Source: an uncultured Chloroflexia bacterium
GTDB taxonomy: Bacteria > Chloroflexota > Limnocylindria > Limnocylindrales > CSP1-4
DNA: 64,000 bases
Reading direction: 5' to 3'
NCBI GenBank assembly: GCA_963720755.1
Contig: CAVRGP010000011.1
Span: 512,001 to 576,000 of the forward strand
The position numbers were made by a program, and so were the translations under genes. Positions within the stretch are counted from its first letter, which is position 1; the number at the start of each line of letters is the position of its first letter. Shown here in pieces: positions 288 through 6,496 of this stretch. A model generated the notes under the pieces. That model ran no database searches. It was not told the DNA's origin and saw only the letters and a list, made by a program, of their open reading frames with translations.

Positions 288-1172
288 TCAGTGTTGACAG
301 CCGCGGCAGAACGAGGTGATGAATCCGCCGGCCCGGACCTCGGTGATCCGAGTCCCGCAACGCGGGCATGGTTCGCCGCCCTTATCGTGGACAGCCAGGA
401 AGTCCCGGACCTGGCGTTCGAATGTCGGCGGGACCCTGGTCCGGAGCGTCGCGATCGCATCCACCAGCGTCTCGCGCATCGCGGCATACAGAGCGTCGAC
501 CTCCTCATCGGCCAGGCTGGATCGTTTCCGGAATGGCAGCAGGCTCGCGCGGTGCAGGATCTCGTCGCTGTAGGCGTTGCCGATGCCGGCGACGAACGCC
601 TGGTTGCGGAGCAGGTTCTTCAATTCGCCCGGGTGTCGACGGATGCGCTCGCGCCAGGAGTCGATGGTCAAGTCAGGATCGTCCGCATCGGGACCCTGGT
701 CGGGTGGGCCCAGACCGGGCACCGGCCGATCGACTCCTGCAGGACGCAGGTAGACCTTGCCCATCTGCGTCGGATCGCGATAGCGGACCTCCGGGCTGGC
801 GTCATCCGCCGGGAGCCACGAAGCGCCCTGCGTCCAGGGGGCCGATGGCTCGGCGTCATCCGCGCCTCGCCCGCGCGCACCGAAGCCAAGGACGACGGCC
901 GTCTTGGTCGGCCGGCGTTCGCTCTTCGCCGCCAGCTGGAAGCGACCCGTGAGCATCGGGTTCCACGCGACCGCATCCTGCTCAAGGGCCATCAGCAGGA
1001 ACTTGCCTCGACGCGTGATCGTGCCGACCCGTTGGCCGACGAGCGCATCCAACTCCGCCGGCGTCCCACGGACCGCGAGCGGACCCGGGGCATCGACCGT
1101 GTCGACGGGTCGACCGGAAAGAGCAGCCTGGAGCGCTTCGGCGACCACGGTCAGATCGGGCAATTCGGGCAC
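288..1172 (-). CDS. mutM: Fpg/Nei family DNA glycosylase/AP lyase
   Basis: N-terminal PELPD, RRGKFL, H2TH motif GIGNAYSDEIL, C-terminal zinc finger CPRC...CRGCQ. Confidence 0.85.
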   Translation of the reverse strand: MPELPDLTVVAEALQAALSGRPVDTVDAPGPLAVRGTPAELDALVGQRVGTITRRGKFLLMALEQDAVAWNPMLTGRFQLAAKSERRPTKTAVVLGFGARGRGADDAEPSAPWTQGASWLPADDASPEVRYRDPTQMGKVYLRPAGVDRPVPGLGPPDQGPDADDPDLTIDSWRERIRRHPGELKNLLRNQAFVAGIGNAYSDEILHRASLLPFRKRSSLADEEVDALYAAMRETLVDAIATLRTRVPPTFERQVRDFLAVHDKGGEPCPRCGTRITEVRAGGFITSFCRGCQH

Positions 1173-1212: not shown

Positions 1213-1388
1213 CTCCCGGCCCCAAGAGGCAGGACAGCTGAAGAGCGCTGGACAAGCCATCGACGCAGGAGGACCGGACCGCGGAGTAGAGAACCACGGA
1301 CCACCTGATCGCATCGGACTCGGCTTGAGCGTCGCTCGAGCCGATCGTGATTCTCGGGCGCAAATCCACCATAGGAGTGACTACCACC

Positions 1389-3872
1389 TTGACCGAAGAG
1401 CAGTCGGGCGGGACCGCGCCGGAGCCGGAAGCCACCGCATCCGTCGCCGACCAGGCGTCCGAAGAAACCGTCGCGGCGGTCGCCGTCGCTGACGAGCCCG
1501 CCACCAGTCCAGTCGATCCGGAGACCCCCGAGCCGGAGCGCATCCCGGAAGCGTCGAGCGATGAAGCGCCGGGCGATCCCGCCGTCGATGGGGCACCCGC
1601 GGATCCGGCTGAGCCCGTCGCGGCCGAAGCCGAACCAGTCGCGGCCGACGCCGCGCCGGATGCGCCCGATGCTGCGCCGGAGGCGCCCGATGCTGCGCCG
1701 GAGGCGCCCGCCGCCGCACCGGCCACGACGGAGACCGCCGCCGCCGCCGCTGCTGGCGACGATGGATCGGCCGAGGAGGCTCATCCGGAGCCCGCGCCCG
1801 CGCGCGACCTCGGACCCGAACCGACGACGATGGAGGAGCTCCTCGCCGAGCAGGATTCCGATATCAAGAGCTTCAAGCACGGCGACGTCGTCGAAGGCCA
1901 GGTGGTCCGGATCGACAAGGACGAGATCCTCGTCGACATCGGTGCCAAGAGCGAGGGCGTGGTCAGCAACCGGGAGCTGTTCGGTCGACACGGCGAAGGC
2001 CAACCGGAGCTCGCGATCGGCGATACGGTCCTGGTCTACGTTCTCCAGCCCGAATCGCCAGAGGGTCATGTCGTCCTGTCATTGCGCCGGGCCGGGCTTG
2101 AGCGCAAGTGGCGGGCGATGCAGGAGCAGTTCGAGGCGGGCGTCATCATCGAGGCGCCCGTCATCGACCACAACAAGGGCGGACTGATCGTCGATTGCGG
2201 AATCCGCGGTTTCGTCCCGATCAGCCAGATCGTCGACTTCCCGAGGCGTCCGCAGAACGACCAGCCGCGCGACGCCGCCCAGGAGATCGCCGAGAAGCTG
2301 ATGCCGTTCGTCGGCCGCAAGCTTCGACTCAAGATCCTCGAGGTGAACCGCAAGGCGAACCGACTCATCCTGTCCGAGAAGGTCGCCCTCTATGAGGAGC
2401 GCCGCGAGAAGCGGGATGAGCTGTTCAGCAGTCTGCAGGTCGGCCAGAAGGTGACCGGCACGGTCCGCTCGATCGCGCCGTTCGGCGTCTTCATCGACCT
2501 TGGCGGCATCGACGGGCTCGTGCACAAGAGCGAGTTGTCGTGGAACAAGGTCAACAACCCCGAAGCCGGCTACGAAGTCGGTGAGGAGGTCGAGGCCGAG
2601 GTCATCGACATCAATCACGAGCGCGGCCGGATCAGCCTGTCGATCCGGCGGCTGCAACCGGATCCGTGGCATTCGACCGTCGCCGACTTCAACGTCGGGG
2701 ACATCATCGACGGGACGGTCACCAAACTCGTCAACTTCGGCGCATTCGTGCGTGTCCGCGACGGGCTCGAAGGGCTCATCCACATCAGCGAGCTGTCGCA
2801 TCAACGCGTCGCCCACCCCGGTGATGTCGTCCATGAAGGCCAGTCGCTCAAGTTGAAGATCATCTCGCTCGACTCCGAGCGACATCGCCTTGGGCTGAGT
2901 CTCAAGCAGGCGGAGGAGCCGCCGGCCCGGCCGGCGGTCGAGGCGGGATCACCCGCCCCCGGTGCGCCACGGCCAGAGCGTCGTCCGCGGCCGGAACGCA
3001 GTTACTCGATGTCCGATGCGGTCCAGGAACCCGAGGGCGGGATCGATAACACCCTGGCCTCGGCCTTCGCCCAGGTCCGCCAGCAGCTTGCTGCCGCCGA
3101 GGTCGACGAGGTGGTCGCGACCGTCGCCGAGGACGAAGCGAACGAGGAAGCCGACGCGATCGATCGCGTCGATCAGGTCCTGACCAACGTCGCCGAGGAT
3201 GAGGCCATCGAGGAGGCCTTCGCCGCAAAGAAGATCGACGAGATCGGCGATGCGGTTGTGGAGGATGAGGCCGCCGAGGAAGCCATCCTGGCTGAGTCGG
3301 TCGAGACGATCGCCACCAACGTCGCCGAGGATGAGGCGATCGAGGAGGCCTTCGCCGCCAAGAAGATCGACGAGATCGTCGACACGGTCGCAAGCGACGA
3401 GGCGGCCCTGGAACAGGCCGCTGCAGCCGAGGTCGACCGCCTCGCTGACGTGGCCGCGGCCAACGACGACAACGCTGCGGCCGCGACCGAGGCCGAAGTG
3501 GACGTCGTCGAGACGGTCGCCGCCCTCGAGCAGGCTGAAGAGCAGGTCGCTGCGGCAGAGATCGAGACGATCGTCGAGACCGTCGCCGAAGACGAGGCAG
3601 CCGAAGAGGCGATCGCCGCCGAGACGATCGAGACGATGGTCGACAACGTTGCCCAGGACGAGGCGGTCGAGGAAGCCGTCGCGGCCGCCGAGGTCGACGA
3701 GGTCGTGGCGACCGTCGCCGAAGACGAGGCAGCCGAAGAGGCGATCGCCGCCGAGACCGTCGAGACGATCGCCGCCGAGGTGGCGGCCGACGAGATCGCC
3801 GAGGAAGCGGCCGCGGCGGAGACCGTGGAAGAGATCGCTCGCAAGACGATGGAGGCCAACACCGAGGGGTAA
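1389..3872 (+). CDS. rpsA: 30S ribosomal protein S1 (four S1 domains) with long acidic N- and C-terminal extensions
   Basis: S1 repeats ([53 protein letters not shown]); AGGAG at 1373-1377; start uncertain (TTG 1389 or GTG 1377). Confidence 0.9.
1653..1710 (+). repeat. 21-bp tandem repeat (about 2.8 copies) encoding [14 protein letters not shown]
   Basis: gcgccgga(t/g)gcgcccgatgct repeated at 1653, 1674, 1695. Confidence 0.85.
3123..3845 (+). repeat. Degenerate 66-bp (22-aa) coding repeat, about 11 units, in the rpsA 3' end
   Basis: Units start VAEDEA/VVEDEA/VASDEA/VAQDEA at 66-nt spacing (3123, 3189, 3255, 3321, 3387...); units at 3189 and 3321 nearly identical. Confidence 0.85.
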
Positions 3873-3962
3873 CCGCCCCTCGGCCGATCGACGACCCGCC
3901 GGTGTCCGGCGGGTCGTGTCGAATTCCTTACCCGTTCGCCAAGCCTTGGGTGACAGGCGGCG

Positions 3963-3971
3963 TGCTAGCAT
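3963..3971 (+). promoter_or_regulatory. Extended -10 promoter (TGcTAGCAT) for clpC
   Basis: TGnTAnnnT match 50 nt upstream of ATG 4022. Confidence 0.45.
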
Positions 3972-4021
3972 GGCCGGAGCGCCGCCAGACGGTGTCGGGA
4001 AGGGAACAGGCGTTCGACTCG

Positions 4022-6496
4022 ATGGATCGCTTCGACAAGTTCACGGATCGCGCGCGCAAGGTCCTGACCCTCGCGCAGGACGAAGCGCAGCGGTTCAACC
4101 ACAACTACATCGGCACGGAGCATCTCCTGCTGGGTCTCGTCCGGGAGGGCGAGGGTGTGGCTGCGCGCGTCCTTGAAAACATGAACGTCGAGTTGCCCAA
4201 GGTCCGGACGGCCGTGGAATTCATCATCGGCCGGGGTGACCGGCCGGTCGTCGGCGAGGTCGGGCTGACACCACGGGCCAAGCGGGTGATCGAGCTCGCG
4301 ATCGACGAGGCACGCCGCCTCGGCCACAACTACATCGGCACGGAGCACCTGCTCCTTGGCCTCGTCCGTGAGGGTGAGGGGATCGCCGCCGGTGTCCTGG
4401 AGTCGCTGGGCGTCAATCTCGACAAGGTCCGTCACGAGGTCATCCGGGTACTGTCGCAGAGCTCGTCCGCCGGCCCCACACCAGAGGCCAAGCGAGCCAG
4501 CAAGACGCCGACGGTGGACCAGCTCGGCATCAATCTCACCGACGCGGCCCGTGCAGGAAAGCTGGATCCCGTCATCGGCAGGGAGAAAGAGATCGAGCGG
4601 GTCATCCAGATCCTCTCGAGGCGCACCAAGAACAACCCGGCCCTCATCGGCGAGCCCGGCGTCGGCAAGACGGCCATCGCCGAGGGTCTCGCCCACAGGA
4701 TCGTCGCCGGCGACGTCCCGGAGACGCTGCTCAACAAGCGGGTCCTGACGCTCGACATCGGCTCGCTGGTGGCAGGGACCAAGTACCGCGGCGAGTTCGA
4801 GGAGCGACTCAAGAAGATCATCGAGGAGCTCCGCAACACGAACGACGCGGTCCTCTTCATCGACGAGCTCCACACGCTCGTCGGGGCTGGGGCAGCCGAG
4901 GGCGCCATCGACGCCGCCAACATCCTCAAGCCGCCGCTGGCCCGCGGCGAACTCCAGTGCATCGGCGCCACGACTCTCGACGAGTACCGCAAGTACATCG
5001 AGCGCGATGCCGCCCTCGAGCGACGGTTCCAGCCGGTCATGGTCGAAGAGCCCACGCTCGAGCAGACCGTCGATATCCTGCTGGGGATCCGTGCGCGCTA
5101 CGAGGAGCATCACAAGGTCACGATCACCGACGAAGCGGTCAAGGCCGCGGCCGATCTGTCGACCCGCTACATCACGGATCGGCACCTTCCGGACAAGGCG
5201 ATCGATCTCATCGACGAGGCTGCGTCACGCGTCCGCCTGCGTCACGCGTCGGCTCCGCCCGCCTTGCGCGAGGCGCAGAAGGAGTTGGAGCGCGTCACCA
5301 AGGAGAAGGACGCCGCGATCAACAACCAGGAGTATGAAGAGGCGGCCACCTTGCGCGAGGCGGAGGCGACGGCCCGGGAGAGCGTCGACACCCTCCGGGC
5401 CGAGTGGCAGGCGCAGGTTTCCGGTGAGCAGCCGACGGTCGGCGAGGAGGAGATCGCCCAGGTCGTCGCGATGTGGACCGGCATCCCGGTCACCCGGATC
5501 GCCCAGGAAGAGTCGGAACGACTGCTCAAGATGGAGGAAGTCCTCCACGGGCGGGTGATCGGCCAGGAGGAGGCGATCGGTATCGTCTCCAAGGCGGTCC
5601 GCCGCGCCCGGGCTGGCCTCAAGGATCCCAAGCGCCCGATCGGTTCGTTCATCTTCCTCGGTCCGACCGGCGTCGGGAAGACCGAGCTGGCCAAGGCCCT
5701 CGCCGAGTTCATGTTCGGCAGCGAAGACGCCCTGATCAAGATCGACATGAGCGAATTCATGGAACGGCACAACGTCAGCCGACTCGTCGGTGCCCCTCCG
5801 GGTTATGTCGGGTTCGACGAGGGCGGTCAGCTGACCGAGGCCGTCCGGCGGAAGAACTACTGCGTGGTGCTTCTCGACGAGGTCGAGAAGGCGCACCCGG
5901 AGGTCTTCAACATCCTCCTGCAGATCCTGGAGGACGGGCACCTCTCGGATGCCAAGGGTCGACGCGTCGACTTCCGCAACGCCATCATCATCATGACCTC
6001 GAACCTGGGAGCCAAGCAGCTCCAGACGAATTCGAGTCTCGGTTTCCGGGCGATGGGCTCGACCGATGCCAACCGCGCCGAGAGCTCGTACGAATTGATG
6101 CGTGAAAAGGTCGCGGCCGAGCTCAAGTCGAACTTCCGCCCCGAATTCCTCAACCGCATCGATGCGACCGTGGTCTTCCGCTCGTTGACGATCGAGGAGA
6201 TCGCCCAGATCGTCGACCTGATGCTGGCCCGCGTGCGCGACCAGCTTCGGGCGCAGGGCATGGCACTTGAAGTCACCCCGGCCGCCAAGGAGCACATCAT
6301 CAAGCTCGGCTATGACGTCGCCTACGGCGCGAGACCCCTCCGCCGGGTCATCCAGAACATGGTGGAAGACGTCCTGGCGGAGCATCTGCTCCTTGGAAAG
6401 TACGAGCCGGGCTCGACGATCATCGTCGATCGGGACCCGGACGCCGGTCTCGACATCCACCTCGCCGAGCCCCGGACGCCGGTCGAGGCCAGATGA
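4022..6496 (+). CDS. clpC: ATP-dependent Clp protease ATPase subunit ClpC
   Basis: Duplicated Clp_N ([13 protein letters not shown] x2), Walker A GEPGVGKT and GPTGVGKT, short UVR M-domain, LGF ClpP-binding loop. Confidence 0.95.

Follow-up and report, generated by a model that had tools for sequence, protein, structure and literature searches.

A long acidic repeat tail on ribosomal protein S1 of an uncultured Chloroflexota bacterium, predicted to fold as an antiparallel helical hairpin

Introduction

For initiation, most bacteria rely on ribosomal protein S1 to capture mRNAs and to unfold them. In a 64,000-nucleotide stretch of DNA from an uncultured Chloroflexia bacterium (contig CAVRGP010000011.1 of assembly GCA_963720755.1, positions 512,001 to 576,000 of the forward strand; hereafter, the window), the rpsA gene (1389..3872, + strand) encodes an S1 protein (bS1) in which four RNA-binding domains are followed by a long, strongly acidic tail of 22-residue repeats. 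The question that this locus raises is whether the tail is a genuine part of S1 and, if so, what shape it may take and what such an appendage may do on a ribosomal protein. Nucleotide positions in the window are counted from its first letter.

The known variation of S1 lies mainly in the number of S1 domains, as described in the parts of two sources that we drew on (PMC6705787, PMC6566611), and a lineage-specific C-terminal extension of actinobacterial S1 is mentioned in the consulted part of a third (PMC10931766). An initial annotation of the window, made from the letters alone, knew of no described S1 with the present architecture. This is in line with our finding that no S1 with a coiled-coil or repeat tail is described in the open-access papers and bioRxiv preprints searched, supplements aside.

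Results

The repeat tail and its coding status

The C-terminal extension after domain 4 is 315 amino acids (aa) long; all residue numbers are counted from GTG 1347, the first codon of the longest open reading frame (ORF). The extension begins with a basic Pro/Arg-rich linker (2925..3005, aa 527-553, + strand, net charge +3), which is predicted to be disordered: its values in the predicted local distance difference test (pLDDT) are below 50 over aa 521-554. Then come, on the same strand, a conserved base motif (3006..3122, aa 554-592), an array of eleven units of 22 aa or 66 nucleotides (nt) (3123..3848, aa 593-834), and a conserved C-terminal end of 12 residues (3834..3869, aa 830-841). The module from the base motif onward comprises 279 aa. 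The first of the eleven units begins at aa 593 (nt 3123) and the last ends at aa 834, and the register slips by one residue midway along the array. The initial annotation had described about eleven acidic 22-aa repeats at 66-nt spacing, and all the units that it quoted were found in this layout. Tandem Repeats Finder detected a period of 66 nt at 3189-3391, 3501-3771 and 3562-3838, and a period of 132 nt at 3183-3429 and 3571-3817, the array having a partial higher order of 44 aa (132 nt). The residue identity within the tail is 0.44 at a lag of 22 and 0.438 at a lag of 44, while it is about 0.15 at other lags; the maximum reached at any lag in 2000 shuffles was 0.271. As had also been noted initially, the tail is free of Pro and rich in Ala and Glu: over 263 aa, it contains 76 Ala, 60 Glu, 33 Val, 24 Asp and no Pro (29% Ala and 32% Asp plus Glu; net charge -76). 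In the whole module, 86 Asp or Glu residues stand against 9 Lys or Arg residues, giving a net charge of about -77.

The repeat tail is in frame with the S1 domains, and no stop codon occurs before 3870-3872. The guanine-cytosine (GC) contents at the three codon positions of the tail (0.80/0.385/0.865) match those of the S1 core (0.695/0.354/0.866), and those of the clpC gene are similar; therefore, this frame is the coding one. In a comparison with a congener (locus L003), the ratio of nonsynonymous to synonymous substitution rates (dN/dS) was 0.19 in the two arms of the tail described below, 0.014 in the base motif and 0.016 in the S1 core, these values being approximate because dS is about 1.3, near saturation. 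The DNA units are mostly 55-75% identical to each other, with about 90% identity in two pairs only, and a repeat collapse or misassembly is therefore unlikely. Moreover, short-read contigs from four soil runs of one study, which may derive from the source sample, are identical to the window over 2900-3124, 2934-3096, 3286-3531, 3596-3757 and 3728-3900; the first of these crosses position 3090, near which no stop was found. The region 3138-3273 is without coverage in these contigs, a gap that proves nothing.

There is next to no probability that the tail is an artefact of misassembly or frameshifted read-through, or a separate gene. In the assemblies of several relatives, many of them with few contigs, the tail is frameshifted into an Arg-rich frame (L014, L019, L020, P0125 and others), and other long ORFs overlap the tail region in other frames, as an artefact might produce. 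However, the frame is kept to the same conserved end in 98 of the 120 listed, independently assembled homologues, and the codon-position GC fits this frame only. Together with the divergence of the DNA units and the contigs from other runs that are identical across the 3090 junction, these facts effectively refute a separate gene or a misassembly, and the tail is, as initially proposed, a part of S1. A genome search did not find the 22-aa repeat elsewhere in the same genome. Acidic 100-aa windows are rare in the proteome (12 of the 1165 long coding-like ORFs), and the tract of S1 exceeds all the others in length by a wide margin. The tail is thus a genuine, S1-specific coding sequence on which purifying selection acts.

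The S1 core

The four S1 (OB-fold) RNA-binding domains (1830..2924, aa 162-526, + strand) were recognized by Pfam PF00575 in four stretches (E 8.6e-61), and Pfam shows no other family above noise in this protein. The NCBIfam model NF005208, '30S ribosomal protein S1', aligned to aa 162-530 with 377.4 bits against a curated cut-off of 368. Strands were predicted in all four domains in the full-length AlphaFold2 model, and the core matched the structures of mycobacterial bS1 (8wi9_b, Z 12.1), Vibrio S1 D3-D4 (7a05, Z 11.7) and 4nnh_A (Z 11.4). A helix, MEELLAEQ (aa 162-171), is predicted ahead of domain 1; in bS1, domain 1 together with the helix before it binds uS2 on the 30S subunit, as in the docking of S1 on uS2 in E. 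coli, and the predicted helix may do likewise here. This is the single full S1 of its own genome (3.0 Mb, 93.6% complete), in which the next candidate is a lone S1 domain of 34.7 bits. By every testable feature, the rpsA product is the only S1 of the genome and a true bS1. The whole protein has a net charge of about -123 and an isoelectric point of 4.2.

In the possession of four S1/OB domains, a single genomic copy and the N-terminal helix, this protein is like the four-domain bS1 class (NF005208 / PRK06676), and the domain number is that of S1 in Actinobacteria and Chloroflexota. The mycobacterial bS1, which bears the actinobacterial C-terminal extension, is its nearest solved relative, and the present S1 shares with actinobacterial S1 the possession of a lineage-specific addition at this end. 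Compared with that protein, the present S1 adds an acidic N-terminal extension of about 147 aa, and its C-terminal extension is 315 aa with 22-aa repeats and a predicted 20-nm acidic hairpin.

Predicted fold of the tail

Two AlphaFold2 runs gave nearly the same picture of the tail. In the full-length run, with 57 homologues, helices were predicted at aa 566-705 and 707-839 with pLDDT values of 95-98; in a tail-only run, with 8 species, they were predicted at 565-705 and 707-840, with a mean pLDDT of 92.4 and a predicted template modelling score of 0.59. The sole non-helical residue between them in both models is Asn 706 (residue 153 of the tail-only run). The tail can thus be divided into arm 1 (3042..3461, aa 566-705, + strand, net charge -34), whose helix begins within the base motif, a conserved centre, AAANDDN (3453..3473, aa 703-709, + strand), with a predicted turn at Asn 706, and arm 2 (3465..3863, aa 707-839, + strand, net charge -41). 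The 279-aa tail has no Pro, and its 4 Gly residues lie outside the predicted helices except for one in arm 1.

The geometry of a hairpin was taken from the secondary-structure assignment (DSSP) and the structural matches of the predicted models. With VIA-align, the tail model matched the chemoreceptor 2ch7_A (Z 11.0, 273 residues aligned over 565..841, root-mean-square deviation (rmsd) 8.2 Å) and the antifreeze protein Maxi, 4ke2_A (Z 10.8, rmsd 2.5 Å, 196 residues aligned over 602..809, 19% identity). The latter was the best superposition found for the tail model, with a template modelling score of 0.64 on the target length in Foldseek. Further antiparallel hairpins among the matches were those of SMC (5xg2, Z 10.9), 7ogt (Z 11.1), 7zr1 (Z 9.2), Tsr, PrgA and Rad50, and Foldseek also lists 6h2x and 5nnv, with 2ch7 at E 0.013. 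As matches of a predicted model, they show an arrangement, not an ancestry.

The periodicity of the tail is that of the 22-aa unit. The hydrophobic periods are strongest at 4.37 and 3.12 residues, namely the 5th and 7th harmonics of 22, and a weaker peak at 3.65 residues, near the 3.67 residues of a hendecad (11/3) coil, has a power of 74 against a shuffle mean of 34 (standard deviation 14, maximum 106; about 2.8 standard deviations). An 11-residue periodicity, of the hendecad, apolipoprotein or late embryogenesis abundant (LEA) kind, had been assumed in the initial annotation. It was not borne out: the lag-11 identity, 0.147, is at the background, and it ranges from 0.09 to 0.20 in the 120 listed homologues. 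A kinship with apolipoprotein or LEA proteins is likewise unsupported, no such Pfam family being matched at E<=1. The 22-mers of apoA-I are Pro-punctuated. Unlike apoA-I and the 11/22-mers of group 3 LEA proteins, the S1 tail lacks the 11-aa periodicity and has no Pro to punctuate it.

Two other approaches were of little help. When the positions of large hydrophobic residues were correlated with their mirror image about the turn, the highest values fell at centres 699 and 710 (r 0.44-0.48), and the value at 706 was low (r 0.07). A hairpin whose register is slightly offset would be compatible with this pattern, which is not decisive and was dropped as evidence. A prediction of self-association between two copies of the tail scored 0.00 against a mark of 0.42, which is evidence neither for nor against binding.

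The initial annotation had proposed an ordered helical rod instead of a random acidic tail. The helical, non-random part of that claim stands with the high pLDDT values, the absence of Pro and the co-varying arms described below, but a single rod gives way to a hairpin of two helices of about 135 residues. Judging from these models, the tail is probably ordered and helical, and probably folds back on itself as an antiparallel hairpin.

Paired arm lengths and conservation

If the two arms pack against each other along their lengths, they would be expected to change in length together. A search with aa 575-841 found 273 proteins at E<=1e-3 among 8000 candidates scored, and 120 of them were listed. 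The sequence T-[ML]-[EDK]-x-N-[TS]-x-x forms the C-terminus in 98 of these 120. The 98 tails with both the base motif and this conserved end were used, the 22 cut or frameshifted ones being dropped. When the tails are measured from the base motif (EGGID) to their last residue, their lengths are quantised by the 22-aa unit: values of 147, 170, 191, 209, 213, 235, 257, 279, 280, 301 and 323 aa were found, and the 44-aa series 147/191/235/279/323 covers 91 of the 98 tails. Exactly one centre motif is present in 94 of the 98, and the other 4 were dropped. Among the 94, the arms are matched, with a constant difference, in 87 tails, which fall into five size classes: (76,66) with 1 tail, (98,88) with 6, (120,110) with 44, (142,132) with 27, and (164,154) with 9. 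The seven mismatched tails are (98,110), (120,132) twice, (142,154), (142,88), (164,110) and (142,133). All of the intact species representatives (8/8), including that of the present genome, are symmetric. The comparison of repeat numbers among related rpsA genes, which the initial annotation had called for, thus gave differences in 22-aa steps with five matched-arm classes.

The changes were then counted on a tree. FastTree was applied to the non-tail columns of the 61 proteins in which domain 1 is preceded by 100 aa or more; the remaining 33 lack that part and were dropped. At a minimum, arm 1 changed length 18 times, arm 2 16 times and the two combined 19 times, while about 34 changes would be needed for the pair if the arms were independent. 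Mismatched states occur only on the tips of the tree. Symmetric indels are a recognised mark of the chemoreceptor hairpin, according to the consulted part of PMC5907407. These distances and counts suggest that the tail length evolves by the gain or loss of one 22-aa unit on each arm.

A weaker sign came from residue covariation. In the 235-aa class, 6 of the 8 strongest anti-diagonals lie at i+j of 247-255, where 244-250 would be expected, which is weak evidence for the pairing; the 279-aa class gives a diffuse signal, with its strongest anti-diagonals spread over 284 to 331. As for conservation, the base motif is invariant in the 57 aligned homologues, and the fraction of the majority residue is 0.92-0.96 in the base, 0.83-0.94 in the last 12 residues, 0.76-0.85 at the tip and 0.70-0.82 in the arms. 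The base motif and the last 12 residues would be neighbours in a hairpin, and both are the most conserved parts.

Matched arms are equally expected from an antiparallel dimer of unbroken helices. In such a coiled coil between two chains, unbroken helices some 275 residues long would run antiparallel, or hairpins would associate as four-helix bundles in the manner of Maxi or the chemoreceptors, and either would join two S1 proteins and hence two ribosomes. The DSSP assignment leaves one non-helical residue only at the centre, and the closest structural matches, 4ke2 and the chemoreceptors, are known as dimers of hairpins. Nevertheless, Asn and Asp, which favour the ends of helices, abound in the conserved centre; the single chain folds back on itself in AlphaFold2, as the structural matches indicate; and a charge of -77 per chain disfavours the close packing of four such helices. 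We regard this intermolecular arrangement as distinctly improbable and the hairpin within one chain as the likelier one.

Homologues and distribution

S1 domains of PF00575 were present in all 120 listed tail matches, and those with organism names are annotated as S1 proteins of Chloroflexota. In public records, the tail-bearing proteins are simply labelled '30S ribosomal protein S1'. A filter-free scan with aa 554-841 gave 41 matches among 1.84 billion representative proteins. Of these 41 matches, 12 were read: ten are pieces of S1 tails, many of them frameshifted, one is an S1 fusion (P0145), and one is an outlier of 27% identity with a different repeat. In the fusion protein, of 673 aa, an unrelated N-terminal part of about 250 aa runs directly into S1 at a point inside domain 1, which probably reflects a chimeric contig or a frame called wrongly. 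A sequence search of the PDB with aa 554-841 gave 0 matches at E<=10, and the ESM Atlas gave no usable match to the tail. By its sequence, the module seems to belong to no known family.

Among the genomes of the class (301), the base motif was found in families f1 (71/91), f2 (12/12), f4 (16/103) and f3 (1/92), and in none of f5 (0/2). A sister family with genomes of about 1.1 Mb keeps the base motif, which is followed by 65-100 aa without the repeat. In the congener set of 19 loci (L003-L021), intact repeat tails occur in 7 (L003, L004, L005, L006, L010, L012 and L015), and cut, frameshifted or variant tails occur in 6 (L009, L013, L014, L019, L020 and L021). The repeat module is also present in other genera of the family (L033 and L035).

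One more locus of interest is L032 (G247:C3:175400-179800, minus strand), from another genus, in which the module occurs twice in one 793-aa S1 frame, in the N-terminal extension and at the C-terminus. Both copies carry the centre ...EIDRL/EIERI..DAADAN.., and the fragment P0131 has the same N-terminal copy. The hairpin module behaves as a unit, as seen from the second copy in this locus.

Some tails depart from the common pattern. In L013 (G011:C6), three centre motifs occur 81, 181 and 259 aa past the base motif, and the end is a different, Lys-rich one, AADKGKTDKR; this suggests several hairpins or a rearranged array. In L014, L017, L019, L020, P0125, P0126, P0127, P0136 and others, the tail enters an alternative frame rich in Arg, Pro and Ser, and sometimes returns. 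Such frame-switching tails are often in assemblies with few contigs, and frame switching is most simply explained as an indel error in a GC-rich repeat.

Start site, N-terminal extension and surroundings

The ORF spans 1347..3872 on the + strand and is 841 aa long at most, or 827 aa if started at 1389. The start is most likely TTG 1389, because GGAG is found at 1374-1377, 11 nt upstream of it, and the gene callers of relatives begin at the matching MTEEQ. These callers disagree among themselves on the start, some placing it 17 aa before domain 1 and others 125-207 aa earlier.

Between this start and the S1 core lies an unusual N-terminal extension of about 147 aa (1389..1829, aa 15-161, + strand), acidic and rich in Ala, Pro and Glu. 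It has a net charge of about -34, contains 21-nt repeats at 1641-1722 (Tandem Repeats Finder), and is predicted to be disordered, with pLDDT values of 30-46 in the full-length AlphaFold2 model. It was found in frame in all 10 species read, with lengths of 143-250 aa, conserved ends and a hypervariable, repeat-rich middle. It directly precedes the MEELLAEQ helix.

Upstream of rpsA, an fpg/MutM-like ORF (288..1172, - strand) was recognised by eye from its N-terminal PELPD and its zinc-finger end. Downstream, an ORF for a ClpC-like ATPase lies at 3902..6496 (+ strand) with a probable start at ATG 4022.

Two acidic proteins were observed elsewhere in the same genome, outside the window. One is a 745-aa frame on contig C13 (232628-234862, - strand), CYTH/CHAD-like by eye, with an inserted acidic tract of Ala/Glu units of about 11 aa (EEIERAAAEAIEEVERAAADAVEEIEH...); it is a second Ala/Glu helical-repeat insert in the genome. 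The other is a uS2-like ORF (C11:901728-902975, + strand), which carries an acidic C-terminal extension of about 110 aa rich in Ala, Glu and Pro; uS2 is the docking partner of S1.

Discussion

The best explanation of these data is a four-domain S1 with a lineage-specific 279-aa acidic hairpin module that would serve as a stiff arm, and we hold this explanation with moderate confidence. From the base motif, a helix of about 140 residues would run outward, turn at the Asn-rich centre (aa 703-709) and be followed by a helix of about 133 residues running back, so that the last 12 residues would finish beside the base motif. The two helices would form an antiparallel coiled-coil rod with a seam of Ala, Val and Ile. 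A helix rises by 1.5 Å per residue, which would make the rod roughly 20 nm long in this protein and give a range of about 10-23 nm over the length classes. Attached by the short, basic and flexible linker, it would project from the mRNA-binding end of S1.

Several points weigh against this explanation. For long helices, the alignment tool advises caution below a Z of about 13, and the structural matches reach Z values of 10-12; Foldseek found no match to the tail model in the PDB at E<=0.001. AlphaFold2 can be over-confident on idealised helical repeats, and its alignments were shallow here (57 sequences at 72-83% identity in one run and 8 sequences in the other). The strongly negative arms (-34 and -41) should repel each other, and the core is mostly Ala, so that its stability in solution is uncertain. 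The tip is barely above the arms in conservation (0.76-0.85 against 0.70-0.82). As for the joint changes of the arms, 18 of the 58 inner branches of the tree are unresolved, and the count could be too high if strains have exchanged entire tails; even with such exchange, the five matched classes require paired events. Among the congeners, L007, L008, L011, L016 and L018 have Pro-containing acidic tails without the 22-aa unit, L017 starts as this type before its frame shifts, and L034, from another genus of the family, also has a Pro-containing acidic tail. These Pro-containing tails are probably disordered, and the shared trait may be charge, not shape. Finally, the functional part of the explanation is purely inferred.

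The same tails bear on a simpler view, which we consider unlikely: that the tail is a low-complexity acidic extension without a stable fold, a by-product of high GC content and repeat slippage, with transient helices and at most a generic role in solubility or as an 'entropic bristle'. The Pro-containing tails, which are of similar length and occur in five or six of the 19 congener loci and in L034, accord with this view, as do the acidic and predicted-disordered N-terminal extension of the same protein, the large negative charge on both arms and the dN/dS of the arms, about 12 times that of the core. On the other hand, a tail of this kind would hardly lack Pro in 279 aa with only 4 Gly, nor would it have arms that are matched in 87 of 94 tails over five size classes and change jointly on the tree. 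Its centre, base and end are conserved, the dN/dS of the arms is well under 1, acidic tracts are rare in the proteome rather than general, and the pLDDT is high in both AlphaFold2 runs. We therefore prefer the folded hairpin.

By its arrangement, the tail module would resemble antiparallel coiled-coil stalks without membership in those families. The signalling domain of chemoreceptors (2ch7, 3zx6) is an antiparallel two-helix hairpin of a length similar to that predicted here, and, in the part of PMC5907407 that we drew on, its length classes arise from symmetric indels in both arms. The S1 tail differs in the size of its step (22 aa instead of 7), in being most conserved away from the tip, in its extreme charge and in its host, a ribosomal protein rather than a receptor; moreover, Pfam MCPsignal had no match in the S1 protein at E<=1. 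In the arms of SMC, MukB and Rad50, too, a long intramolecular coiled coil turns back at a distal element and runs antiparallel, but these arms link a hinge and an ATPase head, whereas the S1 tail would have a tight turn and no domain at its far end. Maxi, the hyperactive type I antifreeze protein of winter flounder (4ke2), has an 11-residue Thr periodicity and is not acidic. It is like the tail as an Ala-rich helical hairpin, in geometry and Ala content only; in the acidic S1 tail, the lag-11 identity is at the background, and there is no reason to expect ice binding.

In charge, the tail recalls another set of proteins. Acidic appendages and mimics are known in the C-terminal tip of Hfq, the SSB tail, the ribosomal P-stalk and bL12, and in the DNA mimics Ocr and ArdA. 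Nucleic-acid mimics have surface carboxylates that are placed like backbone phosphates, and they bind the nucleic-acid site of their partner. The Hfq, SSB and P-stalk tails share with the S1 tail a polyanionic appendage with a conserved end on a nucleic-acid-binding or ribosomal protein, but they are disordered, while order is predicted for the S1 tail. Ocr and ArdA, which come from phages or plasmids, are proteins that stand alone, in contrast to the appendage on S1. The S1 tail would spread a charge of -77 over about 20 nm on a rod about as thick as a duplex, these dimensions being derived from the model. The Pfam, PDB sequence and ESM Atlas searches gave no sequence or family link of the tail to these acidic-tail and mimic systems.

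What the rod may do can be considered only tentatively. The initial annotation had raised an RNA mimic, an oligomerisation arm and a tether to a membrane or condensate as possible roles. It may act electrostatically or sterically, as a stiff negative projection at the mRNA-binding end of S1, a proposal to which we give somewhat less than even chances. In one form of it, RNA, DNA or neighbouring ribosomes would be kept away from the 30S platform; in another, the rod would be a tethered nucleic-acid mimic that competes with RNA for basic surfaces of S1. A ruler that reaches one fixed site is unlikely, because the length varies about 2.3-fold among close relatives. Since congeners carry disordered acidic tails instead, what the tails have in common is probably their bulk and their long-range negative charge. 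A more specific and rather doubtful idea is that a stalk of about 10-23 nm, in some members one at each end, is a built-in nucleic-acid mimic or a reach-out arm. If this were so, the stalk could control which RNAs gain access to the 30S platform, or link the ribosome with an adjacent one or with some other machine, and it would be a structural and regulatory element of the bacterial ribosome without a described counterpart.

If real, a folded and charged 20-nm stalk would be a new kind of decoration of the bacterial ribosome, comparable to the ribosome in size. The hairpin would also be the second natural example, after the chemoreceptors, of hairpin-constrained indels, and its matched-arm length classes constitute a clean natural experiment on the evolution of repeat proteins whose parts are constrained to pair. 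Being short, free of Pro and probably easy to express, the module lends itself to a direct test of the structural claim. The lineage that carries the tail comprises abundant uncultured soil bacteria. If the tail tunes the access of RNA to S1, it would bear on the adaptation of translation initiation in slow-growing soil bacteria; if it is inert, it would still show clearly that an essential ribosomal protein can tolerate a large appendage.

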